64,000 nucleotides of DNA from Spirochaetia bacterium (GTDB taxonomy: Bacteria; Spirochaetota; Spirochaetia; DSM-2461), in assembly GCA_963666985.2 (NCBI GenBank), contig CAXXIA010000003.1:96001-160000 (forward strand), read 5' to 3'. How positions within the stretch are numbered: position 1 is the stretch's first letter; every line of letters starts with the position of its first letter. Below are positions 110 through 17,199 of this stretch, in pieces. Position numbers and translations under genes: made by a program. A model generated the notes under the pieces. The model saw only the letters and a list, made by a program, of their open reading frames with translations, was not told where the DNA came from and made no database searches.

Positions 110-1724
110 ATGGGCCACATGGAAGCCGATCATCCCGAACTCCACGGTTTTTCCCTGCGTTACATGGACGGATGGGCCGTGCTCATCGTACCGCCGAAAT
201 CGGAACGTTCAAGACCTGTCTACGCCGACGACATCTCGGCGCGGATGAAAATACTGAATATTCCCTCCGTACCGGCCAAAATGATACGAAACATCATTGC
301 GGAGGGAACAGGCAAGCCCGTTCCTCTTGTGAAATGGGCCGCCGGAGCCTCCCTGAACGCCCGGATGACGGTTACCGTGGATGAAGACGGGATGAAAGCT
401 TATGCCGACGTAATTCCGGCAAAACCCGGCGGAGCTTCATTAAGTCCGAATACCGTTAAGGCCGCACTGGAGGACGCCGGAGTATCCAGAGGGCTGAAAA
501 GGGATTGCTATCGATAATATTCTCGCCTACCCCGTAGCCGCCGAGAATATTCTTATCGCCGAAGGGAAAGCCGCGAAGAACGGCCGGACGCGGCGGACAG
601 AATGCCGATTCGTAACCGAACGGGGTAAACCCTGGAAAGAAGCCCTCCGGCGGACGGATTGATTTGAAGGACCTTCATTTCATTCAGAACAGGAAAGCCG
701 GAGATCTTCTGGCCCGCATCGTACCCGCCGTTCCCTCCGAAGACGGATATAATGTCTTCGGAGAAGTGATTGAAGCCGAAGAACCCGTTCAGGAAATTCT
801 TTTGGAAGCCGGTGAGGGAGTTCGTGCGGACGAAGACGGATTGACGGCCGAAATCGACGGAAACGTCCTCATCATCGACGGAGCCGTATGCGTTGAGCCG
901 TCGGTAAACGTGAAAAACGTCGATTATTCAACGGGAAACATCGAATTCGACGGTTCGGTTTGCATCGAAGGGACCGTGGCCGACGGATTCACCGTCAAGG
1001 CCGAAGGAGAAATTCTTGTCGGGAAAACCGTCGGACGCGGACGTTTATCCGCCGGAAGAAACTTGGTGCTTCAGGCCGGAGTGGTGGGCGACGGTGAAGG
1101 ACACTGCGAGGCGGCGGCAGTCTGTACGCCAAATTCATTGAAAACGCAAAACCTCCGTCGCGGGAGACCTGATTGTAACCGAAGCCGTACTTCACTCCGA
1201 AAACGAAGTGGATGGAAACATGGTGCTCGACGAAGGCCGCGGAGAAATCGTCGGAGGCATCACCGTTCTCGGCGGAAACCTTACCTGTAAAAAAATCGGG
1301 GAATATTTACGCAGGACAAACCCGAATTTACATCGGCTGTCCGCCGGAAAAGCTCCGTTCGTATCATGAACTCGGCACGCGGCTTAAAGCGACCCGTGAA
1401 GAAACCGATGAACTGGAACGTCAGCTCGACTATCTCCGCTCGAAGAATGGAGCGAAAGAAGAAATCATGACTTTGGAGCGGGGAATCGGCGCGCGTTTGG
1501 AGGCATTGAAGGAACAAGCGGCGCGTCTGAAAGCGTTAAAGGAAAGTATTAAGGCGCCGGACGGAATCACCGTAACCGTTAAGGATCGAATCTATCCGGG
1601 AGCCGTTCTCTCATTCGGACTGGAAGAATACCCGTTGGGCGATAAGGGACTGGAACGGGCGGTTCTTCAGCGCAAAGGCGGACGAACCGTGATGCACGGA
1701 TATACGCCGGCAAAGGAAACATAA
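110..1724 (+). CDS. FapA/DUF342 family (flagellar assembly protein A-like) protein, split by several frameshifts
   Basis: Fragments 110-517, 664-1290 and 1212-1724 join into one DUF342-like protein (GRIDLKDLHFIQN..AGDLLARIVP, VDYSTGNIEFDGSV.IEGTVADGFTVKAEG, ITVKDRIYPG). Indels at about 506, 645, 1112, 1155 and 1300. Confidence 0.8.
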
Positions 1725-1823: not shown

Positions 1824-3972
1824 CTATTTTCGGTGCTTTATCTTCGTCGGTTCCCCAATGTACAAGAAGGTCCGTTTCGCAATGCTTGTTCCGTTCCAAA
1901 GTTTTTTCAAGAACGGCATAATCCAGTAATCCAGTCCGAAAGATTTGCCCGCGCCGCCCAGGAACGCTAAAGCCGCCGCCATATACCAGAAAATGGACGC
2001 ATCCGTCATCGCGCCGACAATGAGCATGATGCTGAAAACGAAGGATGCCGCCGCGGCCAGCCAGGTGAAAGCCCCGCCGATGAGCGCCAATCCGATAAGA
2101 ATCTCGAATACAACAATACCCGACTGAAAAAAGTGCGGAGCCAAGTTCACGGTATGCTGCGCCGCCCAGACATAAATGCCGAGGGGATTATCGAGGAGGG
2201 CACTCCCTCCGGAAACATGCCCGGCCGCTTCGACCGTCGCCGATGCCACCGCATCCGCGGCGTCCGCGACATGCGCGGCCGCAGAAGCAACCTGTGTTGC
2301 ACTTTCCGCGACGGCTTCGGATGCCGCGCTTACGGCATCGGCTCCACCATGGACGGCGCTCCGACGGCCTCCCAGCCACCCCCGACCACCGCATCCGCGG
2401 CGTCCGCGACATGCGCGGCCGCAGAAGCAACCTGTGTTGCACTTTCCGCGACGGCTTCGGATGCCGCGCTTACGGCATCGGCTCCACCATGGACGGCGGC
2501 TCCGACGGCCTGAGATGCCGCCGCGCTTCCCTCGGCGGCAACAGAAGCGCCGCTCACGGCATCGCCGCCCTGCGACCGGAACACTGACGAAATCATTCGC
2601 GCGATCCAGCCATCCGCCGAGCGCCTTCTTTATTCCTTGTATTAGCCACATCGTCCCGACATACATCCGCAGAGGCACAAGCCAATAGTTCGGAGTTTTC
2701 CAAGCGGCAAATCCCCCGATGAGGGACCGGTTGTTCCGGATATCAAGGATTTCATGCTTCAGATAGGCCCATACACCGTTCAGACCGACAACCCCGACTT
2801 GGTAGTAGAGATTAACCACGTGTTTCAGGGCCACGGCGAAGAATCCCGAGAGGGAGATGCCTCCGGTATGCGACACGGCGTATTTACTGCCGATGGAAAC
2901 CATGAAGCCGTGGTAGCGGCCCTTGTATTCGACTTCCCGGGCTTTTTTCCCGCGTCCCTCGGACTTTTCGAGAGCATCGATGATGTTGTGAGCGGCGGTT
3001 TCGGCGGTTTGCTCGGCCGCCTCAACAATCTGAGGATTCGGCCGTTCGTTCTCCAAAATCCAAACACCGTCTCCGGCAAGAAAGACGTTATCCCGTCCGG
3101 GGCTCCGCATGGTCCGATCCGCTTCCATGCGGCCGGCTTTGCCCGCCTTCAAATCCAGGCATCCCAGGAAAGAGCTGCCTTTCACTCCGCAAGTCCAAAC
3201 AAGAGTGGCCGCTTCCAGAGACGTTCCGTCTTTAAAATGGAACGCGCCTTCCTCGGCCTTGACGATCAGGGCATTCGTGCGGATCTCAACACCCTTTTTC
3301 TCCATATAGCGCGCGGCTTTCGCTCTCTGCTCCTCGGGAAGCATATCAAGGATATGTCCCAAAGCCTCGACGTTATAGATGGCCACCTCGTCTTCCGAAA
3401 GGTCGTATTTCCGGCATAAAGTCGGAAGGAACTCGATTAACTCACCCACCAGTTCCACACCGGTAAACCCGGCGCCTGCCACGGCAACGGTCATCAGTTT
3501 CCTGCGCTCGGCCGGATCGGGTTCCAATGAAGCCTCCTGAAATTTCGCTCAAGGGTCCCGCGAATCAAAGCGCGTCGTCAAGAGACCATAGGGATAACGT
3601 AAAATCCCGGATGCCCGGAATCCCGAAGTCGGCGGGTTCGCCGCCCGTCGATATAAGCACATAGTCGTAGGGATAGCGGCCGATGAATCCTTTAGCCTCG
3701 TTCGCCTCAAAATTCACACCGGTAATCTCGTCATGGATTACATTCACCCGAGTTCCTGAAAAAATTCGGTCATAGCTGATTTTCACCGAAGCCTGGGGCA
3801 CCCGGTCTCCGGCAATCTCATGAAGTTCGGTCATCAGAGTGTGGAACCGATTCTTGTCGACCAGCGTAATCTCCACATCCTTATCTTTCCGGTATTTTCG
3901 ATGGAGCGTTTTCGCCGCCTTGACGCCCGCATAACCTCCGCCAATAATCAGAATCCTTTTTCTCGGTGCCAT
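1824..3972 (-). CDS. ndh2: Type II NADH dehydrogenase with C-terminal membrane (DoxX-like) domain, Listeria EET Ndh2-like; frameshifted in this sequence
   Basis: N-terminal IIGGGYAG FAD motif (ORF 3565-4002, ATG at 3972) continues after indels near 3540-3565 into VAGAGFTGVELVGEL, LAGD and PQIVEAAEQ. It is followed by WLVPLRMYVGTMWLIQG and EILIGLALIGGAFTWLA..GAGKSFGLDYW membrane segments. Confidence 0.85.
2246..2511. repeat. Tandem duplication of about 125 bp (copies 2246-2370 and 2386-2511, period 140) inside ndh2
   Basis: The copies are identical except for one missing G (ggacggcgctcc vs ggacggcggctcc). They are separated by cccagccacccccga. Confidence 0.95.
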
Positions 3973-3998
3973 TGCTTTTTCCTTCGATTTTTTGTTTC

Positions 3999-4982
3999 TC
4001 ATCGATCACGATTTCCCAGTGTCGCCGCAAGATCCGCCAGAGCATCTTTCGCCGCACCATTCGGTAGCGCTTCGGTGCACATAATCGCGCGCCGTGTGTA
4101 ATCCTCGACATATGTCAGAGCCGCCGCCGCCCCGCCCACCTCAACAACGCGGCGGCGAATTTTCGCGGAACGCCTTTTCGACAAAGGTTTATCCAGAATC
4201 CCCTCGAATTTTTCAGGATTCCGCCGGACCGCCAAAATAAGCGGCAGGGTGGCGATGCCGTCACCCGAATCCTTGCCGACGGGTTTTCCCAAAGCCTCCG
4301 GACTCCCGCCGTAATCAAGGATGTCGTCGAGAATCTGAAATCCCATTCCCAGAGCGTAGCCGTAACTCCTCATCGCTCCGCAGACGGAGTCCGAACTTTC
4401 GCCGACCCGCGCCCCCGCATATGCGGCCATAAGAAAGAGCGACGCTGTTTTTCCGGCGGCCTTTCTCTTGTAGCTCCTTAATCCCGAACCTTTCGCGGGA
4501 ACGAGGATTAATTCGGATTCACAGAGTCTCCCGACGCCTGCAGAGAGAAGACGCGCCGATTCCGGAGAAGCAAAATCCGCGACAAGCCCAAAACAGCGTG
4601 TCAGTACGTAGTCTCCGGCCAATACCGCTTTCTTAACCCCGTGTGCCGTATGGAGAGTCGCAACACCTCGGCGCATGGGTGATGAATCGACGATATCATC
4701 GTGGATCAGGGAGGCCAAATGAAGAAGTTCAAGAGCGGAGGCCGCACGATAAGTCTTCTCGGCATCGAACTCGCCGAGCCTGGCTCCCAGTATAAGCAAG
4801 GTTGACCGAAGCATCTTTCCCGGGCTTTCCAGCAGAGAAGCCAGATCGCCGCCAAGTAGAGCCGGATCCGGGGATACGGTATTTTTAATCAGTCTGCGGA
4901 CCTCCGCGATATCATGTTCCAGATATGGATGCCGCAAGCGGAATTCGTCGATTGTATTGGAAGAAATCTTTTTAATAGTCAT
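3999..4982 (-). CDS. Polyprenyl (heptaprenyl) diphosphate synthase, DmkB/HepT-like
   Basis: GKMLR, LIHDDIVD..RRG, GKTASLF and FQILDDILD..GKPVGKD motifs. Confidence 0.92.
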   Translation of the reverse strand: MTIKKISSNTIDEFRLRHPYLEHDIAEVRRLIKNTVSPDPALLGGDLASLLESPGKMLRSTLLILGARLGEFDAEKTYRAASALELLHLASLIHDDIVDSSPMRRGVATLHTAHGVKKAVLAGDYVLTRCFGLVADFASPESARLLSAGVGRLCESELILVPAKGSGLRSYKRKAAGKTASLFLMAAYAGARVGESSDSVCGAMRSYGYALGMGFQILDDILDYGGSPEALGKPVGKDSGDGIATLPLILAVRRNPEKFEGILDKPLSKRRSAKIRRRVVEVGGAAAALTYVEDYTRRAIMCTEALPNGAAKDALADLAATLGNRDR

Positions 4983-5101
4983 CCGTTAATTCTCCGAATC
5001 GACCCCTCTTAATATTAGCGTTTTACTATTATTTTAACACATCGAAGGATGAAAATACCCAAAATATCGGCCGATTTCAAGAAATGTTTCGGTATCGAGG
5101 G

Positions 5102-6028
5102 TTAATCCGCAAAAAGCTGCCGGGTATAAACAATGCCGATAAGAAGCATTGAGGCCAGAGCGAGAGTGAATGCAAGGAAAATACGCGAAATCCCCTGCAT
5201 GGAAATCCCTTTGGTCTCATGAGAGAATCCATTGCGATGCATCACGGAAAATTCCCGAACCGCGAAGCCGAAGAACGGTATGATAACAGCGGGGCTCCAA
5301 ATCGGAACCGGACCGAAAAGACCCGGGATTAACGGAAAAAGGAACGCCACCGCCGCTTCGGAGGCCGCGATGGCTTCACCGATTCGGCGTCCGACCATCA
5401 CTGAAAGGGTTTTCCTTCCCGCGGCGCGATCGCCGACGATATCGCAGGTATTGTTCACCGTAAGAACGGACGCAATGGCGAATGAAGAAGGGAGTGAGGC
5501 CATGAACACCGCCGAGTCGGGCCGGCCCGCTTGAACGTACCAAATAATGAGGAAAAAGGCCGATCCCAAAGTACCGCCTGCGAAAAACTCGCCCAAGGGC
5601 GTTCCCGAAAGGGGATGCCGACCTCCGTTGTAGAAATAACCCACTGCCATACAGCCGGCGCCTGCCGCCGCAACGGGCCATCCCGACAGGAACGCAAGCG
5701 CCAAGCCCAAAGGCACGGCCATGGCGAAAAGGCCGATTGAAACGAGCAGGGCCCAACCCCAAGGAACCCCTTCATGGACAACGACCTTGGACGCTTCTCT
5801 GTTATATGCCGGATCGTCCACGCCTCTACGGAAATCGAAATACGTGTTGAACGCCGTTGTCCCCATATCCACCAGAAGGGCGGCGATCAGCAATAAAGCC
5901 GCACGAACCGGTTCAATTCCGCCGGTTCGAAGCACGACATACAGACTTCCCAGAACATACGTGGAAATCGAGACAATCTTCGTCCGAATCTCGACGACCG
6001 ATAGAAATTGTCTTAAAGTCATTGCCAA
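5102..6028 (-). CDS. menA: UbiA-family prenyltransferase, MenA/DmkA-like (DHNA polyprenyltransferase)
   Basis: VEIRTKIVS, NTYFDFRRGVD, PLSGTPLGE and NNTCDIVGDRAAGRKTL motifs; multiple TM helices. Confidence 0.85.
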   Translation of the reverse strand: MAMTLRQFLSVVEIRTKIVSISTYVLGSLYVVLRTGGIEPVRAALLLIAALLVDMGTTAFNTYFDFRRGVDDPAYNREASKVVVHEGVPWGWALLVSIGLFAMAVPLGLALAFLSGWPVAAAGAGCMAVGYFYNGGRHPLSGTPLGEFFAGGTLGSAFFLIIWYVQAGRPDSAVFMASLPSSFAIASVLTVNNTCDIVGDRAAGRKTLSVMVGRRIGEAIAASEAAVAFLFPLIPGLFGPVPIWSPAVIIPFFGFAVREFSVMHRNGFSHETKGISMQGISRIFLAFTLALASMLLIGIVYTRQLFAD

Positions 6029-6261
6029 AATCGCTTCACCTTTGCCCCTGCCGCTCTCCCATAAATTCCTTCCGGAAGCGGCGAGCGAAAAAAACGGCCA
6101 AATCGGAATAATCCTACTGAAATATGAAACACTTTCTCTTCTCTTGTAAAATGACCGGATTATCTATTACTATTTTAGTATTATTATATTTATGGTAATA
6201 TTTCAATCCGGCGTTGTTTCCCACAGAATTAGGAAGCGACGGACATAATGAGGAGATTACG

Positions 6262-7068
6262 ATGAAAAAACTGATTTTCGTTACACTGGTTCTGTTCGCG
6301 GCGGTTTCGGCATTCGCCGGAAATTGGACGGACGGATTATATTTCGCGCAAGACGACGCCTTCGGCCGAACCGGCTGGAAATCCAACGTTACATTGGAAG
6401 TCCGCAACGGACGCATCAGAAGCGCCGTCTGGAACGGAACGAAAATCAACGGCGGGATGGATAAAATATCGGCTTCCGAAGCCGGACGGTATCCGATGGT
6501 TCAGCAAGGCGGTGCCCGTGACGATTGGCACATCCAGGCGAAACGCGTACAGAACCACCTCCTGAAGACTCAGGATCCTACCCAGATTTCCTATTCCGAC
6601 GCAGAGGGTCATACCGACGCCATCTCGGGCGCCACCATCCACGTCAGAGAGTTCTTCATTCTGGCTCAGAAAGCCCTGGCCGCGGGACCTGTGGATCGCG
6701 GTCCATATCGGGACGGTTACTTCCAGGCGGAAGAGGCGGTTTTCTCGCAGCAGAGCGGCTGGAAATCCTTCGCCCAATTCACCGTGGTAAACGGCACCGT
6801 CGTCCAGGTAAACTGGAACGGTTTCCACAAAGACGGCGGAGAAAGCAAGAAAATCGTATCCCAAAACGGTGAATACGGGATGATGGCCAATGGCGGCGCT
6901 CAAGCCGAATGGCATGTCCAGGCAAACAATGTGGAAGAATATTATCTCCGTACCGGCGGCCGGCCGCCCAGATTCCCGGATAACTACCACACCGATGCGA
7001 TTTCCGGTGCCACGATTGGGGTTAAACCCCTTTACGCTCTGGCCGAACAAGCTCTTCGCCGGCGATAA
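6262..7068 (+). CDS. Secreted protein with two FMN-binding domains (PplA-like flavinylated protein)
   Basis: Signal peptide MKKLIF...AVSAFA-G. Two internal repeats, each with GWKS..NG....WNG..SK...G.Y.M...GA...WH.QA and ending in HTDAISGATI. RBS AGGAG lies before the ATG at 6262. Confidence 0.9.
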   Translation: MKKLIFVTLVLFAAVSAFAGNWTDGLYFAQDDAFGRTGWKSNVTLEVRNGRIRSAVWNGTKINGGMDKISASEAGRYPMVQQGGARDDWHIQAKRVQNHLLKTQDPTQISYSDAEGHTDAISGATIHVREFFILAQKALAAGPVDRGPYRDGYFQAEEAVFSQQSGWKSFAQFTVVNGTVVQVNWNGFHKDGGESKKIVSQNGEYGMMANGGAQAEWHVQANNVEEYYLRTGGRPPRFPDNYHTDAISGATIGVKPLYALAEQALRRR

Positions 7069-7100
7069 GGAGTACTATTCGATTCCAAGAATCTTCCATA

Positions 7101-8012
7101 TCAGCTCCGCGACGCATGTTCCCGCCCGATGAGCACTCCCGCGATAATAACCGCCAAGGCCGCAACGCTGACCGGCCGAATGGTTTCATGGAGCACCAGG
7201 GCTATCCATACCAGAGATAAAAAAGGCCCGATGTAAACCAAACCGGCAATCCTCGCGGGCCTCTCGGCGCGATGCAGGGCGGTGTTCCAAAGCAGAAACG
7301 TTATGCCCATCTCGAACAGGCCCACCCACACCGCGGCAATCCCGGAAATCGGTCCGGACGGAAACGGTGCGCCGCGCAGCAGCCAGAACGGCAGGAGTAC
7401 GACAGTCGCCGCGCTGAAACCGATGAAAAGCCTGAAAAGTCCGTCGATGGAGAGCCGAGTACCGGCAAGCCAATAAACGGCCCAAATCAGTCCGCTTCCC
7501 AGAGCCAAAAAAACGCCTGCCGAATCGAGTCCCTCAACGCCCTCCGGCCGATATGAAATCAGAACAATACCGGCCATTCCGAAAACCAGGGAAATCATCT
7601 CGCGAACCGTCGGCCTGCGCCCGGCCATCGGCGCCGCCAAAAGAGCCAGAAACACAGGCCATGTATAATTCAGCGGCTGGGCGGCCTGCGCCGGGAGACG
7701 ATCGTAAGCGGCAAAAAGAACCGCGTAATACAAAACGGGATTCAGCAGTCCGATCAGCGCGGAAAAAAGCACCGTTCGGGGTGCGGGGCGGGCCGCGGCA
7801 CCCGATGCTCCGGGGAGCCAAGATCCGGCCGTGAGTCTTCGGAGAACAAGAGCCGAACCGAGAGAGGCCCAGGAGACGAAACTCGCCAAGGCCACAAGAT
7901 CCATCGGCTCAAGTTCCCGCAGCGCCAGCTTGAACGCCGCGGCGACCGTGGACCACAAAGCCACGGCACCGGCCGCCGGAATCAAAGCGGACCTCTTATC
8001 CTCATCTCCCAT
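7101..8012 (-). CDS. DMT/EamA family transporter
   Basis: LWSTVAAAFKLAL, LNPVLYY..AYDRLPAQAAQPLNYTWP and GLFEMGITFLLW motifs; about 10 TM helices. Confidence 0.9.
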   Translation of the reverse strand: MGDEDKRSALIPAAGAVALWSTVAAAFKLALRELEPMDLVALASFVSWASLGSALVLRRLTAGSWLPGASGAAARPAPRTVLFSALIGLLNPVLYYAVLFAAYDRLPAQAAQPLNYTWPVFLALLAAPMAGRRPTVREMISLVFGMAGIVLISYRPEGVEGLDSAGVFLALGSGLIWAVYWLAGTRLSIDGLFRLFIGFSAATVVLLPFWLLRGAPFPSGPISGIAAVWVGLFEMGITFLLWNTALHRAERPARIAGLVYIGPFLSLVWIALVLHETIRPVSVAALAVIIAGVLIGREHASRS

Positions 8013-9015
8013 GCCGCGAATCGCCCTCTTCGCCATCCGGCTCCCCAAGCACAGCGGGCGCAGTGTCCTCACCCCCCGCAGACTTCACCGCCGGGCAGCC
8101 ATTATCGGCACCCGCGCCAAGAGCCTGTTCCACGGCACCCCCCGGCCCAATGGACAATCCACCCTCTTCGCCATCCGGCGCCGTTTCTTCCGCATCAGCC
8201 GGGCCAACGGAGAGGTCGACAGCCATTCGGTTCGGCACACCGACGGGCGGAAGATTTCCACCCAAAAAAGGTTCCGCCGCCGAAGCGCCCTCTTCCTCAT
8301 CCGGCGCCTTCAGATACTGAAGCTTTCGGAAAATCTTCTCCATGTGCCGCGCCTCGCGGACACTCAAGGATGCACGGGCCAGAATGTCCCGAAAATACCG
8401 GTCCGTGTGAAAACGGTCCGCACTTTTGAAATAATGCATCGCCTCAAGCGAGTCATGGATCACCGAAACCAAATGATCCACCTCTTCCCGTGCCACCGGT
8501 TCATATCCGCCGGTCTTCTCCCCCAGCGAACGGCGCCAAAAAGCGTAGGCCACCACCTGAACCGCATGGGAAAGATTCAGCGAAGGAAAATCGGGCGAAG
8601 AAGGAATATGACAAGCAACATTGCAGTGATTCAGCTCCTCATCGCTCAAACCCGTCCGCTCATTCCCGAACACCAGGGCAATCTCCCCCTCGGCAAGAGA
8701 AGCCGCCTTTTCGGCCAGCTCTTCGGGAAGCAGACTGAACCACTTGCGGCGCGCGCCCCGTCTCCGTGTAATCCCGGCCGAAAGCACCGTTCCCGCCAAA
8801 GCGTCTCCCAAACAATAGAACCGCTTGGCCCCGTCATAAATCTCACGGGCATGAATGGCCGCCTGATACACCTCGTCCTGATCGAACCACGTCGGCGAAA
8901 CCAGAACCAGCTGTGTCAGTCCCATGGACTTCATGGCCCGGCAGACCGCACCGACATTCCTCGCGCCCTCGGGCCGAGCCAGAACAACGCGAACCCGATC
9001 CAGCCGGCTATTCAT
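8002..9015 (-). CDS. trmJ: TrmJ/LasT family SPOUT RNA methyltransferase with acidic C-terminal tail
   Basis: RVVLARPEGARNVGAVCRAMKSMG, LVFGNERTGLSDEEL and SLNLSHAVQV motifs. Confidence 0.88.
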   Translation of the reverse strand: MNSRLDRVRVVLARPEGARNVGAVCRAMKSMGLTQLVLVSPTWFDQDEVYQAAIHAREIYDGAKRFYCLGDALAGTVLSAGITRRRGARRKWFSLLPEELAEKAASLAEGEIALVFGNERTGLSDEELNHCNVACHIPSSPDFPSLNLSHAVQVVAYAFWRRSLGEKTGGYEPVAREEVDHLVSVIHDSLEAMHYFKSADRFHTDRYFRDILARASLSVREARHMEKIFRKLQYLKAPDEEEGASAAEPFLGGNLPPVGVPNRMAVDLSVGPADAEETAPDGEEGGLSIGPGGAVEQALGAGADNGCPAVKSAGGEDTAPAVLGEPDGEEGDSRHGR

Positions 9016-9135
9016 TACGGCGTTTCTTCTTTACGGGTGATCCCCGAATCCGGCCCCGTACATCCCCATCCGGTTTTCGGAGTCTGCGTCTTCGGCCGAA
9101 TTCTCTTTTCCCGCGGCGCCTTCATCTTTCGCACC

Positions 9136-9975
9136 TTAACCCATCCCCGCATCGCCGAAATCGGGTTCCCGTCCCTCAAGCATGGCCTCCATCACTTGAG
9201 CGGCGCCGTCCTTATCGGCATGAGGCGCGATACGGTTCGCGGAGAAATGCGTTTTCAGAGCTTTGGGCGCACCCCCCATCACCCAGGCATCGCCCGCGGC
9301 TTTGAGCAGAGTCAAATCATTCCAGCCGTCGCCCATGGCAACCGCGGAAGACACGGGCAAACCGTGCAGGCGGCAAACTTCTTCGAGTCCCCTTCCCTTA
9401 TCCACGCCTCCGCCCATGAATTCCAGAAACGTGGTATCCGAATACGTGGCGCTGAGAAGATCCGAAGGAAATCGATCCACAAGAGCCTTTTCCACCGAAG
9501 CAAGATCCTCCGGTTCGGCCATGATAATCGTCTTGGTGAAGCCCAGCGTTTCCAGGGAATCGAAATCCACGATGGTTCCCCGCAAACCGGTCCGGATGTG
9601 GTATGCCTCAATCTTGGCTCCCACATGCTCATAGAGCAGTGCCGAATTCCGATAAGCCACCATTTCCAAACCCCGGGAGCGGGATTCCTCGATAACGGTT
9701 CTCGCGGCCGTTTCATCCATGTCTTTCTTAAAGAGAACACGACCCTCGGGCCCCTCGACAATGATGGCCCCGTTGTAGCAGACCGTCGGACCGTTAAGTC
9801 TCAATCTGTCGTAAAGGGGCTTTAAGGATTCCCAGCTTCGGCCGGTCGCCAAGCAAACCATGGTTCCGGCCGATTTCAGAGCGCCGATCGCGGAGGCAAC
9901 CCTGTCGGAAAGACTGTGATCGGAACGCAGAATAGTGCCGTCGATATCAAGAAACAAAGCATCGGGTCGATTCAT
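9136..9975 (-). CDS. Cof-type HAD-IIB hydrolase
   Basis: FLDIDGTIL, LATGR, VDKGRGL and MGDGWNDLTLL motifs. Confidence 0.92.
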   Translation of the reverse strand: MNRPDALFLDIDGTILRSDHSLSDRVASAIGALKSAGTMVCLATGRSWESLKPLYDRLRLNGPTVCYNGAIIVEGPEGRVLFKKDMDETAARTVIEESRSRGLEMVAYRNSALLYEHVGAKIEAYHIRTGLRGTIVDFDSLETLGFTKTIIMAEPEDLASVEKALVDRFPSDLLSATYSDTTFLEFMGGGVDKGRGLEEVCRLHGLPVSSAVAMGDGWNDLTLLKAAGDAWVMGGAPKALKTHFSANRIAPHADKDGAAQVMEAMLEGREPDFGDAGMG

Positions 9976-10076
9976 GAAACACAGTATAGAAAGGGACGCT
10001 CTCAGGGGGAAGCGGGCCCAAACCCGGCGTTTTTACAAATTATGAAATCGCCTTGCCTTAAAAAACTTACCGAGAA

Positions 10077-11327
10077 TCAATCCTCGTCGGGATAGCGCTC
10101 GCGAATACTCCGAAGAGTCGGAAGAACCTTAAAGAACGCATCGACAACCTCAGGATCGAATTTTTTTCCGGAGGCATTTTTTATTTCCAAAAGAACATCT
10201 TCTTCGTCCCAAGCTTCTTTATAAACGCGCTTTGAGCTTAAGGCATCGTAAACATCGGATATGGCGACAATACGCGCAAAAAGAGGGATTTCCTCGCCTT
10301 TCAGCCCCTGAGGACGTTCCTCTACATCGCGGATATATTTATCGGCTTCGAATAAATCATCAATTTTTCCCGGATATCCGCTGCCGTCCCAGTTTTCGTG
10401 ATGATAAAGAGCCACTTCCCGGGCGGTTTCGTTTAAGTCATCCTTATCAATAAACTGCCGGGCGCCCAGCCAGGTATGCGACTGCATAATCCGGTATTCA
10501 TCATCCTCAAACTTCCCGGGCTTTTTAAGAATAATATCGCTGATACCCACCTTCCCGACATCATGAAGCATGGCGGCCATACGGAGGTTGTCTTTATTCT
10601 TATCCATTTCTTCTTTTTCGATACCGTGCTTCATCGCCCAGGCTTCGTAGATTTCCATGGAGAAGGCGCCGACCCGGTTTACATGAGCTCCCGTCTCCTT
10701 CGGATCTCTTAAACCCGCGAACCGCGTGATGGTTTCCAACAAATTTCTCGTCATCTGAGCCCGCTGAATGGCTTTGGAACCGAACCGGGCGAAAATTTCA
10801 AAAAACGGTTCGTCTTCCTCGGCGAAAGGCACAAACCATTTTTTGCTTGAATTCTTATCTTGAGCGTTCAGCAGCTGCATCACGCCGAGGAGTTCTCCTT
10901 CGGAGGATATGATCGGGAACGTCAGACTGGAGACGGTCTTGTAGCCTGTTCTTTTATCGAAGGAGGGATCGAAATTATAAGGCGCCGATTGATCGATGGC
11001 GTACATATCGGGAATGTTCAGCACTTTCTCGTACTTCGCGACAAACCCCGAAATCGATTTCTCACTGATGGGGATGGAGAAATAAGAATAAATGAGCTTC
11101 TCGTCCGGTTTCAGTTTCGCCTGAAAGGTATCATTCTGCGTGTGTGTAAACGCAAGCTTATCCCCGTGACGGATATAGACAGTTCCGGCGTCGGCATTCG
11201 CCTCACGGCGTGCCAAAAGAAGGAGACGCTCCAGCAAGAGATCAAGGTCCCTGATACGGTCGAGTTCCCGATCAATTTCGAGAATCCGATTTAATCGTCC
11301 GTCGGAACCTCCGTGTTGGCCGATCAT
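10077..11327 (-). CDS. GAF + HD-GYP cyclic-di-GMP phosphodiesterase
   Basis: N-terminal GAF (SISGFVA..LNIPDMY..FDKRTGYKTVSSLTFPI); ETGAHVNRV, LHDVGKVGI, HHENWDGSGYP, DVYDAL..RVYK. Confidence 0.92.
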   Translation of the reverse strand: MIGQHGGSDGRLNRILEIDRELDRIRDLDLLLERLLLLARREANADAGTVYIRHGDKLAFTHTQNDTFQAKLKPDEKLIYSYFSIPISEKSISGFVAKYEKVLNIPDMYAIDQSAPYNFDPSFDKRTGYKTVSSLTFPIISSEGELLGVMQLLNAQDKNSSKKWFVPFAEEDEPFFEIFARFGSKAIQRAQMTRNLLETITRFAGLRDPKETGAHVNRVGAFSMEIYEAWAMKHGIEKEEMDKNKDNLRMAAMLHDVGKVGISDIILKKPGKFEDDEYRIMQSHTWLGARQFIDKDDLNETAREVALYHHENWDGSGYPGKIDDLFEADKYIRDVEERPQGLKGEEIPLFARIVAISDVYDALSSKRVYKEAWDEEDVLLEIKNASGKKFDPEVVDAFFKVLPTLRSIRERYPDED

Positions 11328-11562
11328 TATATATACAGTAAATCAAATCCGCATTAACGACCATCGTTTTTCTTCTCTTTGATCGAATCAAAGAAAAAAA
11401 GTCATATTCCCAAGTCGGATGCAATCATTCGTCATCGATTGGCGGAAGAAAAAGCCGGGCTCAAATCCGGCAGGATTCCGATTCCCGCGAGAAACCTCAT
11501 CGACGGACCGATTCGCCTGGAACCGAAAGCCATGAAGATCCGTTCGGGAATCTTCGTTATTC

Positions 11563-11591
11563 TTGACCAAGTCACCGCCCGTCAGTAAGAT
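11563..11591 (+). promoter_or_regulatory. Putative sigma70 promoter of rpsD
   Basis: TTGACC-17 bp-TAAGAT, about 80 bp upstream of the rpsD ATG. Confidence 0.7.
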
Positions 11592-11669
11592 ACTGCGACA
11601 TGCCCGTCGGGCATTCGGGAATTTCGTCTTCACGGCGAAGAGTCCCTAAACTCCTTAAAGGAGAGAGCA

Positions 11670-12287
11670 ATGGCGAGAAACACGAAAGCTCGTGGAAAAG
11701 TCGTCCGCCGTCTCGGTGTCAATATTTACGGCAACGGTAAATATGATAGATTGCTCAAGAAGAAACCTCAAAAACCGGGTCAGGAGAAAGGCTACCGGGG
11801 ACGCGGGAAAACCAGCGACTACGGCAGACAGCTCCTGGAGAAGCAGAAACTCCGCTTCTCCTACGGTCTGAGTGAGAAGCAGTTCTACAACACCTTTGTT
11901 AAAGCAAAGCGGTTGGGCGGCCTCACCGGCGACAACATGATGATTCTTCTCGAGCGGCGGCTGGATAACGTCGTTTATCGGCTTGGAATGGCAACAACCA
12001 GGGCACAGGCCCGTCAATTCGTCAGTCACGGACATATCCGGCTGAACGGAAAGCGGTCCAACGTCCCCTCCATGGTCGTTCGCGAAGGCGATACCATCGA
12101 AATCAAGGACACTGAAGGCAGCAAGAAAATCATTCGGGAAGGCCTGGCGCACAGCAATCAGGTTATGCCCGCATGGCTGTCCATGGACGGCGATGCCCTT
12201 AAGGGCAAGGTGGAACGGCTCCCTTACCGGACCGACATTCCGACGGCCGCCAACGAACAGATGGTGGTTGAGTTCTACTCCAAGTAG
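11670..12287 (+). CDS. rpsD: 30S ribosomal protein S4
   Basis: SDYGRQLLEKQKLRFSYGLSEKQF, LLERRLDNVVYRLG, ARQFVSHGHI and VVEFYSK motifs. Confidence 0.98.
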   Translation: MARNTKARGKVVRRLGVNIYGNGKYDRLLKKKPQKPGQEKGYRGRGKTSDYGRQLLEKQKLRFSYGLSEKQFYNTFVKAKRLGGLTGDNMMILLERRLDNVVYRLGMATTRAQARQFVSHGHIRLNGKRSNVPSMVVREGDTIEIKDTEGSKKIIREGLAHSNQVMPAWLSMDGDALKGKVERLPYRTDIPTAANEQMVVEFYSK

Positions 12288-12314
12288 AATTCATCACGGC
12301 GATTTATTCGCACG

Positions 12315-12344
12315 AAAAAGGCGGTCCGTTCGGATCGCCTTTTT
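12315..12344. terminator. Bidirectional intrinsic terminator between rpsD and the isomerase gene
   Basis: aaaaaggcggtccg-tt-cggatcgccttttt hairpin flanked by A and T tracts. Confidence 0.8.
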
Positions 12345-12386
12345 CATTGGAAAATACCGCTGATGGGAAAGCCGTACCGACGAGCA

Positions 12387-13802
12387 TCAATGACGGTAAA
12401 TGTCCCATCCCATGTATTTTGCCGCCGCTTCTTCAACGATTGAGGCGACATTTCCGCGAACCATCGCGACATGATGTTCAAATCCCCGGGCGCAGATATG
12501 CGCCATAAGCCGCCGAAGTTCGGGAACCTTCACAACGGCGATGCCTCCGTCCATCGGGAACTCACGATCAATCAGTTCTCCTTCGCCGAGATATCCCTTC
12601 ACGTTACCTTCAAGGTCGTCCGTTGAGATTCGGAAATAGGTCATCGGTCCTTCGGCGGCATGTCCCTTGACGGCTCCGAAACACCGTTCCCGTCCGAGAC
12701 TGGCGCCGAGAATATCGAGTTCCGAGATTTCCACATCCGAACCCATAAAGCTCTTCGGGTAATTGCTGCAATGGGTGCAGACGCAGACATCCGGTTCCCG
12801 CCCGAAGTTGTTGTTCCAATCCAGAAAGCCCGAAGGTTTTCCGGCGGCCAGGGTTAACGCATACATGGAGACCGCTCCGGCGATATCCATTTCACAGGCG
12901 CTCGGCTTTCCCCTCTCCCCCATCATGCTCATGGACAAACAGGACGCGCAGCCGTAATTCGCTTCAAGGCTGTCCCAGCACTGAACGGCGGAAGCCTGAC
13001 ATTCGTTTTGTTCCAGGAACTCTTCAACGGCGATGGAAAATCGCGCCTGCCGGGAGATTTGTTCGGAAGAAATCCGATCGGGGATTCTCCCATAGTTTTT
13101 TATCCCGGCAATCTTCGCCTTCACCGGTTCGGATTCGCCGTCCATGGAATTCGCCGCTGCGAGGATTTCCGATAAGTCGACGGGGATGATCGTGATTCCG
13201 CAGGCATCGAGGATTTTCTCGCTGAAACGAACGGTTCGGAAGGCCATGGGCCGGACTCCGACGGCGGCAATGCGGGCGTTCTTCAACCCTTTAACAACAC
13301 GGCAGATTCCAACGAATCGCTCCAAATCCCGAGCGAACTCCGGAGAATCCGGATCTTCGGTATGCAGGATGGTGTCGGTAAAAGGGATGCGCCGCTGATA
13401 AAGATTGTTGCAGACGGATATCTTGCCGCAAAACGAATCCCTTCTCTCGGAAACGGAGACTTTATCGGGCTGATCTTCCGAAGCCTGAACGAGTATCGGC
13501 ATGGCCTTGTCCGTATATTTCAGGGTTTCGACAACACCAATCTCGTTTCCGAAATTCGGGAGAACGATGAGCATGCCGTCCAGATCGTCTCGTCTCTCCC
13601 GGAACCAATTTCCGGCTTTAACGGCATCTTCATGATCCTCGATGCAGCCGGTCGGAGTCATATCGTCGGGAGGAAGAAGATAGGAAATTCCCGCTTTATC
13701 GAGAACCGTAATCAGTTTTTTCTTATCGGAGAGGGAGAGCTCGGGATTAAAGAAACCGCGCGTTCCGACAATCACGCCCAGTTTAATCTCCGGAATTTTC
13801 AT
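12387..13802 (-). CDS. L-fucose/L-arabinose isomerase family protein
   Basis: LPNFGNE, RRDSFCGKISVCNNL, AVQCW, ACEMD and GFEHHVAM motifs; RBS GGAGG before the ATG at 13802. Confidence 0.88.
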   Translation of the reverse strand: MKIPEIKLGVIVGTRGFFNPELSLSDKKKLITVLDKAGISYLLPPDDMTPTGCIEDHEDAVKAGNWFRERRDDLDGMLIVLPNFGNEIGVVETLKYTDKAMPILVQASEDQPDKVSVSERRDSFCGKISVCNNLYQRRIPFTDTILHTEDPDSPEFARDLERFVGICRVVKGLKNARIAAVGVRPMAFRTVRFSEKILDACGITIIPVDLSEILAAANSMDGESEPVKAKIAGIKNYGRIPDRISSEQISRQARFSIAVEEFLEQNECQASAVQCWDSLEANYGCASCLSMSMMGERGKPSACEMDIAGAVSMYALTLAAGKPSGFLDWNNNFGREPDVCVCTHCSNYPKSFMGSDVEISELDILGASLGRERCFGAVKGHAAEGPMTYFRISTDDLEGNVKGYLGEGELIDREFPMDGGIAVVKVPELRRLMAHICARGFEHHVAMVRGNVASIVEEAAAKYMGWDIYRH

Positions 13803-13963
13803 ACGAACCTCCACAGACAGCACTCAAAATGAGCGGTTTGTATTCGTTTTTGTTTTACCCTATTTAAAACCTCCCTTTTATTTTCTGTCAATTCTTTTTA
13901 TTTTCTTTTTGTTGCTTTTTATTTTCGTTTGGTCTATTGTCCTCATCAAATAGGTTGGTATTT

Positions 13964-14770
13964 ATGAATCTGCAGGAAAAAGCGGTTTCCATCAGGAAAC
14001 GAATCATCACAATGAATTCCAAAGCCGGCGCGGGGCATACCGGAGCCGATTTATCCGAAACGGATATTCTGACGGCTCTTTATTTCAACGTTTTGAATAT
14101 CACCCCCGACCGATGGAACGATCCGGAGAGAGACCGGTTCATACTCAGCAAGGGGCACGGTGTGGGCGGTTATTACTGCACATTGGCGGAAGCCGGCTTT
14201 ATCGACGAATCACTCCTTGAAACCTATCTTCAGGCGAACTCCTTTTGTCCCGGCCATCCGGTCAGGCAGAAAACAAAGGGAGTTGAAGTCAATACGGGAG
14301 GACTGGGCCACGGCTTGCCCATTGCCTGCGGCTTGGCCCTGGCCGCGAAGAAATCAGGGAGAACCTATCGCACGTTCTGCCTCTGCGGCGACGGGGAGCT
14401 CCAGGAGGGCTCCAATTGGGAAGCCGCGATGGCGGCCTCCCAATTTCGTCTCGACAATTTGATTCTCATCATCGACCGCAACAAGCTCCAGCTGGCGGAC
14501 CGAACCGAAAAGATCATGAACCTGGAACCCCTTGACGATAAACTCACCGCTTTCGGATTCCAAACATATGAGGCCGACGGAAACGATCCTGAAGCCATGG
14601 CCGCACTTCTTAACGGCTTGAAGCCGGGCGGGGAACGGCCTTATGCGGTTATCGCCAAGACGACCAAAGGAAAGGGCGTCTCGTTTATCGAGGACAATCC
14701 CGTGTGGCATCACAGAGTTCCCAAAGGAGATGAAATCATGAAGGCCATAGAAGAATTGGAGCAGCGGTAA
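13964..14770 (+). CDS. Transketolase N-terminal (TPP-binding) subunit
   Basis: GHTGADLS, RDRFILSKGH, GGLGHGLP and GDGELQEGSNWEA motifs. Confidence 0.93.
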   Translation: MNLQEKAVSIRKRIITMNSKAGAGHTGADLSETDILTALYFNVLNITPDRWNDPERDRFILSKGHGVGGYYCTLAEAGFIDESLLETYLQANSFCPGHPVRQKTKGVEVNTGGLGHGLPIACGLALAAKKSGRTYRTFCLCGDGELQEGSNWEAAMAASQFRLDNLILIIDRNKLQLADRTEKIMNLEPLDDKLTAFGFQTYEADGNDPEAMAALLNGLKPGGERPYAVIAKTTKGKGVSFIEDNPVWHHRVPKGDEIMKAIEELEQR

Positions 14771-14771
14771 A

Positions 14772-15710
14772 ATGAAAGATTCCAGAGACGCCATGATCGC
14801 ATCGTTTATTTCCGCCGTTGAAAACGGAGTGGAGCTCATGGTTGTTGTCAGCGACTCGACATCAACCTCAAAAATTCAGCCCTTCGCCGAACGATTCCCG
14901 GAGAGAATCGTTAATGTCGGCATCGCGGAGCAGAATCTTGTCGGCATGGCCGCGGGACTCGCCCTCGGCGGATATGTCGTCGCTACCGCCAACGCCTCGC
15001 CGTTCCTTGTAAACCGTTCGGCGGAGCAAGTTCGAAACGATGTGGCCTATACCGATACCAACGTGAAAATGATGGGGCTCAATCCGGGCTTTGCTTACGG
15101 ATCTCTGGGACCGACGCATCATTCCCTGGAAGATATCAGCATGATGAGGAGTCTCGGAGGCGTGAAAATATACACGCCGATCGATCCTGAAGGAACGGCC
15201 GAGGCGGTTACTCATGTTCTCAAATCGGAGGGCCCCGCCTACATCAGAATCGATTCGGGCCTTTTTCAGAACATTAGGAGGCCCGACGGAGTTCTCCGGG
15301 TAACCGCACCCGTTCGCCTCTCCGAAGGAAATGATGTTACGATTCTCGGTATGGGAACATCATCTCATGCTGTTAAAGAAGCCGCCGAGATTCTTTCCCG
15401 CGCTGGAGTACATGCCGATGCCTGGGGCATCCCTTCGATACGCCCCCTTCGGAACGAAGAACTCCTTGAATCAATCGGTAATACGGGTAAGGTTATGAGC
15501 GTCGAAGCCCATTCGGTCCACGGCGGCTTGGGTTCACTCGTTTCCGAATGGATAGCGGATAAGGGGATTCGGGCCCGTTTGGTCCGTTTAGGCGTTCCCG
15601 AAGGACTCTTCGCCCCGGCCTCTCCCCGCCCCGCGATAGAAGCCGCCTTTAATTTGGATACCGACGGAATAGTAAAAAAGGTTCATGAATTCTTAGGAGC
15701 ATCGTATTAA
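14772..15710 (+). CDS. Transketolase C-terminal subunit
   Basis: NVGIAEQNLVGMAAGLA, GPTHHSLED and VEAHSVHGGLGS motifs. Confidence 0.93.
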   Translation: MKDSRDAMIASFISAVENGVELMVVVSDSTSTSKIQPFAERFPERIVNVGIAEQNLVGMAAGLALGGYVVATANASPFLVNRSAEQVRNDVAYTDTNVKMMGLNPGFAYGSLGPTHHSLEDISMMRSLGGVKIYTPIDPEGTAEAVTHVLKSEGPAYIRIDSGLFQNIRRPDGVLRVTAPVRLSEGNDVTILGMGTSSHAVKEAAEILSRAGVHADAWGIPSIRPLRNEELLESIGNTGKVMSVEAHSVHGGLGSLVSEWIADKGIRARLVRLGVPEGLFAPASPRPAIEAAFNLDTDGIVKKVHEFLGASY

Positions 15711-17199
15711 TGGAAAAAACGGCGATTCTCGTTATCGATCAGGGAACAAGCGGTTCCAAAGCCGTTGTTTTTTCCAGAGAAGGTGAATTGCTTGCATCAT
15801 GTACAAAGGATTATAAAATCGACTACCCGAAACCCGGATACGTTGAAATTGATCCGAATGCGCTCCTAAAAAGTGTTTATGAAGCCGCAAAAGGAGCTCT
15901 TGCCCGTCTGGAAGAAGCCGGGATTTCCCGTGAAAACATAAAAACCATTGGCATCTCGAACCAAAGGGAATCGTTTCTTCTCTGGGATAAACAAGGGAAT
16001 CCCGTCGCTCCCATCGTGGTTTGGCAATGCAAGCGGTCGGCGGAATACTGCAAAAGTCTTTCCAAAGACGCCTCTTTTTCCTCCCTGATTTCCGAACGGA
16101 CGGGACTGATTATCGATCCGTATTTCTCCGGCACAAAAATCGCGGTTCTCGCCGATGAAGAAAATCTCCGCTCAGCCATCTCCAAAAAAGATGTGTATTT
16201 CGGAACCGTCGATACATGGCTTATTCGATCGCTCACGAATGCTACGGTTTATGCCACGGATCGTACGAATGCCGGCAGAACCATGCTTTTCGATATTTCA
16301 AGGTTTGAGTGGGACCGCGAAATCATCGATTTTCTCGGACTCAAAGGGCTGAATCTGCCGGAGGTCAGAGCCTCCGATGCGGGTTTCGGCACCACCACCC
16401 TGAACGGATTATTCAAGCGGCCGCTCCCAATCGGAGCCGCTATAGGAGATTCCCATGCCGCGGCCTTCGGCCAAGGTTTATTCCGAAAAGGCGATGCGAA
16501 AATAACCCTGGGCACCGGCTCGTCCATACTGATGAACGTCGGGGATAAACGGATTACATCTTCCAACGGGATGGTCTCAACCCTCTGCTGGAGCAGCGGC
16601 GAGCGCACGGATTATGCCCTGGAAGGGATTATCGTCAGCTGCGGTTCCACTCTCGGCTGGCTGAAGGAGAAGCTGGGAATCGTCGAAGATTTTCGTGAAA
16701 TCGATGCGCTCGCCGAATCTTTAGAAAGCGCCGAAAGCGTCTACCTTATCCCGGGATTCAGCGGAATCGGCGCGCCGTGGTGGAAGCTTGACGCGAAAGC
16801 CTCCATTGTCGGACTTGATTTCGGACATGATAAACGGCATATAGCCCGCGCGGCCCTGGAATCCATTCCGTTCCAAGTTACCGATGTTCTTTCGGCCATG
16901 ACTGAAGATGCATGCGGAACGTTGGCGAATATCAGCGCGGATGGAGGAATTACGGTCAGCCGTTTGTAACGGATACCCTTTCAGCGCTTATCGGCCGTCC
17001 CGTTTACATACCGGCAATGAAGGAATCCACATCCTGGGGAGCCGCTCTCTTGGCGGGACTGAACGAAGGCCTTTATAAAAATATTGATGAGATTGACAGA
17101 ATCATGCTCTCTCGGGAGACTGGAACGGTCAGTACGAAATCAAGTCCCGAATTAATTCGCCGATACAGAGGCTGGCAGTCTATTCTTCAGGATTATTAG
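15710..17199 (+). CDS. FGGY-family carbohydrate kinase (glycerol kinase-like), one frameshift near 16960
   Basis: IDQGTSGSK, ISNQRES, DPYFSGTK, GDSHAA and YALEG motifs. ADGGIT continues in another frame as FVTDTLS..ESTSWGAALLAGL. Confidence 0.88.

Follow-up and report, generated by a model that had tools for sequence, protein, structure and literature searches.

We analyzed a 64,000-nucleotide stretch of the genome of a Spirochaetia bacterium (contig CAXXIA010000003.1, positions 96,001 to 160,000; hereafter, the window), which carries four genes related to the flavin-based extracellular electron transfer (FLEET, or EET) locus of Listeria monocytogenes (fmnA dmkA fmnB pplA ndh2 eetA eetB dmkB). 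An earlier note on this DNA had recognized a type II NADH dehydrogenase (Ndh2), a DmkB-like synthase, a MenA-like prenyltransferase, and a divergently encoded FMN_bind protein, and profile searches recovered all four (Table 1); the two DAISGAT motifs of the last, which binds flavin mononucleotide (FMN), lie at 6616-6636 and 6994-7014. We conclude that the locus is a scattered member of the known Listeria-type electron-export system. Its occurrence in a spirochaete is not new in itself, and the less ordinary part is the motif-bearing loop of Ndh2; the note had overlooked three flavinylation-type motifs within this protein. The weight that it gave to a diderm host is too high, as a Spirochaetota Ndh2 is already tagged EET among the rows listed of Data Set S1 of PMC9973259.

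Table 1. Genes and Ndh2 loop features of the electron-transfer locus, numbered from the first nucleotide of the window
Feature	Position	Strand	Evidence or remark
EET-type type II NADH dehydrogenase Ndh2, with C-terminal DoxX-like four-helix membrane domain	1824..4002	-	PF07992; broken in assembly
Tandem duplication within Ndh2 loop	2246..2498		Two identical 113-nt copies, 2246-2358 and 2386-2498, 140 nt apart
Gly-to-Ala variant DAVSAAS, second copy	2319..2339	-	In duplicated unit of Ndh2 loop
Gly-to-Ala variant DAVSAAS, first copy	2459..2479	-	Ndh2 loop
Canonical ApbE motif DAVSGAS	2543..2563	-	Loop after first Ndh2 membrane helix; fits D-x-x-[S/T]-G-A-[S/T]
DmkB-like trans-polyprenyl diphosphate synthase	3999..4982	-	PF00348, 179 bits; TIGR02748 (HepT) top family
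MenA/DmkA-like 1,4-dihydroxy-2-naphthoate (DHNA) prenyltransferase	5102..6028	-	PF01040, 83 bits; NF009926, 163.7 bits, under cut-off of 316
Secreted two-domain FMN-binding protein, two DAISGAT sites	6262..7068	+	PF04205, 32.9 bits

The loop motifs resemble the published target consensus of ApbE, D-x-x-[S/T]-G-A-[S/T] (PMC12052999). We scored 211 members of the Ndh2 family (89 of 100 extracted loci, after one duplicate and ten partial loci were dropped, plus Listeria, Enterococcus, and 120 database homologs) for a relaxed form, [D/E]xx[S/T][G/A]A[S/T], taking the expectation from shuffles of the same loops. The relaxed motif was present in the loops of 172 of the 211 proteins, with 247 copies against ∼2 expected, although these sequences are kin and the copies are not independent events. 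Carriers made up 40 of 60 spirochaete proteins (80 copies versus 1.3 after shuffling), 22 of 31 from Firmicutes loci (27 versus 0.1), and 110 of 120 database homologs (140 versus 0.3), and the remaining Ndh2 sequence held a single copy in the spirochaete set and none in the other two. The shuffles thus ruled out a low-complexity artefact. Based on the conservation of ApbE-type motifs at this one loop position, Ndh2 itself is likely flavinylated by ApbE on its loop.

Spirochaete loops contain up to 5 copies of the motif, typically spaced 14 to 22 residues apart (one copy in ortholog L031 and four to five in L046 and L049), whereas the Listeria loop has one core, TSGAS, that lacks the Asp. Few Lys or Arg residues occur in the loops. 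Published substitutions bear on such variants: seven residues suffice for flavinylation, loop insertions can be flavinylated, a Gly-to-Ala change leaves ∼50% of flavinylation, and an Asp-to-Ala change has a minor effect (PMC12052999). Ala replaces Gly at 117 of the 154 scored spirochaete sites. The NqrB-like protein of this genome, considered as a control for tolerance of Gly-to-Ala, carries DAATAAT in the loop that holds the Vibrio site, but offset from that site by ∼13 columns. Known ApbE sites in FMN_bind, NqrB/RnfD, DUF2271, Flavodoxin_4, and FMN_red proteins share the heptapeptide consensus of the Ndh2 loop, and those of FMN_red likewise sit on an unstructured extension (PMC8238504 and PMC11334425). 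The Ndh2 motifs differ in that they form tandem peptides, have no folded FMN-binding domain around them, and belong to the flexible loop of an NADH dehydrogenase in the membrane. The portions of PMC8238504 and PMC11334425 covered here do not name Ndh2 as an ApbE substrate, and no statement that Ndh2 is flavinylated was found in the covered parts of a wider set of papers (PMC11334425, PMC9094743, PMC9888254, PMC8837199, and bioRxiv 2023.03.13.532228 included), though Light 2018/2019 may mention it.

The same loop could instead be a vestigial or structural Ala/Ser-rich spacer that is never flavinylated, in a standard FLEET-like chain where Ndh2 does no more than reduce quinone and the electrons go to a separate FMN protein. 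The prevalence of Ala over Gly in the spirochaete motifs would suit a spacer, as would the variable loop length (53 to 181 residues) and the identity of the FmnB substrates known from the papers covered (PMC9973259 among them), PplA and FrdA. However, composition fails to explain the excess of motif copies over the shuffled loops, and short Firmicutes loops retain one near-perfect site, with the core in 27 of 31. We therefore regard a spacer as unlikely.

The position of the loop relative to the membrane was approached through an AlphaFold2 model of a same-genus ortholog (L031; pLDDT 90, 89 sequences), in which the motif falls in a low-confidence loop, residues 462-484, between a helix at 429-455 and three further hydrophobic helices. 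With one membrane helix following the cytoplasmic catalytic domain and a Lys/Arg-rich C-terminus, the loop would face outward, into the periplasm.

Several comparisons identify the protein as an EET-type Ndh2. The best match in the genome to Listeria Ndh2 was the window ndh2 (36 to 42% over three pieces), and a same-genus ortholog is 37% identical to the Listeria protein over 624 columns, membrane domain included; a weak second “Ndh” match, on contig C2, resembles a different flavoprotein of 687 amino acids. The best named relatives of the window Ndh2 family are Spirochaetota, with which the window protein shares a starred clade. In a quick IQ-TREE phylogeny of the catalytic domain, the window protein was one of 40 EET-type rows that fell on one side together with the Listeria and Enterococcus proteins (SH-aLRT 94, unstarred), apart from nine outgroup rows, one of which (OUT_ownC2) was extracted from the wrong open reading frame (ORF) and disregarded. 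This separation from generic dehydrogenases agrees with the kinship that the earlier note had proposed. The catalytic domain shares its fold with generic NDH-2 enzymes (Caldalkalibacillus 4nwz and Staphylococcus aureus 5na1; TM-score to the target, 0.93; rmsd, 2.1), but among the matches listed, ∼400 residues are covered and none spans the membrane domain or the loop. The locus also combines the two features by which PMC8238504 defines EET, an NADH dehydrogenase with a transmembrane helix and its encoding in a flavinylation-associated cluster (FMN_bind or apbE nearby), here through the FMN_bind gene three genes from ndh2. In some other spirochaete Ndh2 proteins (L043:1773-3809, L046:8982-11213, and L049:9345-11570), the catalytic domain is interrupted by an insertion of 30 residues that includes Cys and may bind metal.

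As assembled, ndh2 is not the single ORF for which it had been taken; four frameshifts and the 113-nt duplication interrupt it. Frame-aware alignment to two same-genus orthologs located one-base losses near 3569 and 3534, and further frameshifts are needed in the loop region, at 2568 and ∼2359. The duplication may reflect a repeated unit of 141 nt (47 codons) in which one base is in error, or it may be an artefact of assembly. Short-read contigs, from runs that may be the source sample of the assembly, showed zero differences from it over 5123-16000, and below 5123 their cover is patchy (depth of ∼2 at most for matching pieces). The base at 2568 is missing from a contig of depth 2; the other three indels and the repeat junction are uncovered. 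When 28 orthologs from three relatives served as queries, 7 matched in more than one frame, 3 of them ndh2 and 4 apparently two adjacent paralogs cross-matching. The gene fapA (flagellar assembly protein A; window positions 110-1724), in the same poorly covered region, is split over three ORFs, probably also by assembly errors.

Based on the clean match above 5123, the patchy cover below it, and the fragmented fapA, the four one-base indels are very probably assembly or sequencing errors. Alternatively, ndh2 could have become a genuine pseudogene recently, within a decaying locus, as the clustering of four indels in one gene, the lack of short-read contigs over three of them, and the patchy distribution of Ndh2 within the genus (3 of 13 relatives) might suggest. 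We consider this very improbable, as the gene has no in-frame stops and its product is 77% identical to that of a relative over the middle part, and the reads and fapA point the other way.

The polyprenyl synthase was the best genome match to Listeria DmkB (33%), and the MenA-like gene was the single match (30%) to menA from Enterococcus FLEET loci, used as queries because the Listeria dmkA was broken in the fetched record. The family scores of this prenyltransferase are too close to tell DmkA from MenA (163.7 bits on NF009926 and 156.3 on PRK06080), whereas the Enterococcus FLEET copies score 347 to 390 on NF009926. We found no matches over the cut-off to menB, menD, mqnC, or menG in the genome, which is 93% complete, and the best menB and menD matches were enoyl-CoA hydratase and acetolactate synthase; de novo quinone synthesis was rejected on these grounds. 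With no genes for DHNA synthesis and no MenG above cut-off, DHNA is likely scavenged, and demethylmenaquinone made from it fits as the product. To this extent the quinone proposed in the earlier note stands, but its dedication to electron export is doubtful, because no second MenA-like gene was found and an Nqr-type complex is encoded in the genome as well. In one relative (G017), UbiD/UbiX/UbiA-like genes adjoin ndh2-dmkB in place of a MenA-like gene (L038:4908-8830); this relative may make quinone by another route.

The secreted FMN protein was the best genome match to Listeria PplA, at 24% identity. It scores 33 bits on the PplA model NF041941 (cut-off, 325), and its signal peptide is free of Cys and has no lipobox, although most homologs carry one. 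The resemblance to the Listeria set suggested earlier therefore holds in that Ndh2, DmkB, and PplA all find their best genome matches in the window, but the FMN protein falls outside PplA in the strict sense. It has two strict ApbE motifs and matches PDB 2kzx strongly in sequence (E, 6e-38), and like the FMN-bind2 proteins of PMC11334425 it repeats the FMN domain once and so offers two sites, although its assignment to this subtype is tentative and follows from size and pairing. This protein is likely a soluble periplasmic carrier distantly related to PplA.

The locus had been read as a reduced variant lacking apbE, eetA, and eetB, an interpretation we reject, as all three genes lie elsewhere in the genome. 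A Pfam search placed ApbE at C1:206945, where the Listeria FmnB query matched C1:206855-207787, and EetA and EetB were found at C2:1607470-1608280 with PF07456 (the EetB family; PMC9973259) and PF07009, with Listeria queries matching C2:1607401-1608088. For fmnA, the genome has three matches resembling the T component of energy-coupling factor transporters (24 to 32%); the fmnA query found nothing in the extracted loci, those of Firmicutes included, which makes that zero uninformative. The system resembles the Listeria one in that genes for DmkB, a MenA-type enzyme, and a two-site FMN protein accompany ndh2, whose product has the same membrane domain, and in having FmnB/ApbE, EetA, and EetB orthologs. 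It differs in its diderm host, in having no detectable DHNA synthesis, in its divergent FMN protein, in its several loop motifs, and in being spread over three contigs (four genes in the window, apbE on C1, and eetAB on C2) and not gathered in one eight-gene cluster.

Gene neighborhoods in relatives point to a formerly tighter arrangement. In one same-genus genome (G006), ndh2 has apbE, yihY/brkB, dtxR, and the FMN protein gene as neighbors, and in another (G008) it has apbE and dtxR. Because apbE still lies between yihY and dtxR on C1 in the present genome, and these genes flank ndh2 and apbE in G006, an ancestral ndh2-apbE cluster was likely split here by rearrangement. Among 69 spirochaete ndh2 loci, many of them short, dmkB occurs in 62, apbE in 27, the FMN protein gene in 24, eetA in 17, eetB in 16, and dmkA in 11, and a dmkB-like gene is present in 27 of 30 Firmicutes Ndh2 loci. 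The ndh2-dmkB order is more than chance, and synteny is kept in relatives as the earlier note had anticipated. Among 40 relatives, which are kin and not independent, 22 carry this Ndh2, 10 the FMN protein (all 10 Ndh2 positive), and 17 a MenA-like gene (16 of them Ndh2 positive).

Rnf, Nqr-type, and NapH-like flavinylation systems are also present in the genome. An Nqr-type cluster with an NqrF-like subunit and an Rnf cluster lie at L135:6320-10594 and L136:4106-9118, and the NqrB-like protein has no Gly-containing motif. A second candidate quinol-to-flavin route lies ∼10 kb from eetAB, where the gene for a NapH-like Fer4_5 membrane protein precedes an FMN_bind gene (L133:6470-7579; G000 C2:1596469-1597578). 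Judged by their motifs, two weak DUF2271-like secreted proteins (L134:9393-10112, DGVTGAS, and L138:6480-7244, DGVSGAT) are further likely ApbE substrates, and a periplasmic binding protein of a TonB/ATP-binding cassette uptake cluster (L139:5944-6885), with DAISGAS directly after its signal peptide, may be flavinylated. Two fumarate-reductase-like genes under the cut-off have no obvious signal peptide or motif. The genome has six molybdopterin enzymes; two molybdopterin oxidoreductase genes (G000 C2:1253332 and C2:2845462) have identical scores and lengths, perhaps reflecting a duplicated segment.

This inventory could fit a redox-balancing module, in which Ndh2 regenerates NAD+ by reducing either free shuttles of the DHNA type or a general pool of quinone that the Nqr complex also uses, and no dedicated periplasmic export takes place. 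The single MenA-like gene, the Nqr-type and Rnf genes, and the lack of any cytochrome bd (cydA) or heme-copper oxidase (COX1) match in the 93%-complete genome are consistent with such a role, as is Ndh2-dependent, EET-independent use of DHNA in Listeria (bioRxiv 2023.01.13.524026). It sits poorly with the restriction of the FMN protein to Ndh2-positive relatives among the 40 searched, the placement of apbE within spirochaete ndh2 loci, and the conserved loop motif, and we think it quite unlikely.

We favor, as probable though well short of assured, a Listeria-type flavin export core in which Ndh2 reduces a quinone made from scavenged DHNA and its ApbE-flavinylated periplasmic loop passes electrons to periplasmic flavoproteins. 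In this chain, scavenged DHNA would be prenylated to quinone, Ndh2 would oxidize NADH and reduce that quinone, EetB would supply flavin adenine dinucleotide (FAD) to ApbE, and both the Ndh2 loop and the two-site protein would receive FMN from ApbE. Electrons would then pass from quinol to loop flavin to the two-site carrier, and in a diderm the chain would most likely end in the periplasm and not on external minerals.

A number of observations weigh against this flavinylated-loop chain. Spirochaete loops seldom have the motif in its strict form (4 of 60, with 15 of 31 from Firmicutes loci and 38 of 120 among database homologs), and 20 of the 60 lack even the relaxed form. The side of the membrane on which the loop lies was judged by secondary structure and charge rather than by coordinates, and ndh2 is broken as assembled. 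ApbE, found in 37 of 40 relatives, does not discriminate (21 of 22 Ndh2-positive and 16 of 18 Ndh2-negative genomes), the Ndh2-positive G035 (94% complete) has no ApbE match, and the FMN protein had no match in 12 of 22 Ndh2-positive relatives. Neither a flavinylated terminal reductase nor a multiheme cytochrome was identified in the genome, where no ORF of at least 150 amino acids has two CxxCH motifs. In addition, the papers covered name PplA and FrdA as FmnB substrates, and Listeria Ndh2 can use DHNA without other EET genes (bioRxiv 2023.01.13.524026). The G035 locus (L045) has only a degenerate Ndh2 loop motif alongside the missing ApbE and might serve as a natural loss test.

More broadly, we give an even chance to the idea that ApbE flavinylates EET-type Ndh2 in Firmicutes and Spirochaetota alike, the outer-loop flavin serving as the quinol-to-outside step. 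In spirochaetes, the loop would then be an unfolded tether in the periplasm along which a variable number of flavins, up to ∼5, are strung, forming a multi-flavin wire that has no folded domains. In Enterococcus faecalis, EetB is required, PplA is dispensable, and the electron route from quinol to the outside is stated to be unknown (PMC9864754). The need for a FAD exporter but not for PplA implies another flavinylated protein, for which the conserved Ndh2 loop site is a specific candidate. That a spirochaete has the locus at all is of smaller interest, since a published data set (PMC9973259) already records it. If the proposal is true, the loop flavin of Ndh2 would supply the missing step in the exit of electrons from the membrane, and the spirochaete arrays would represent a new type of multi-flavinylated protein.

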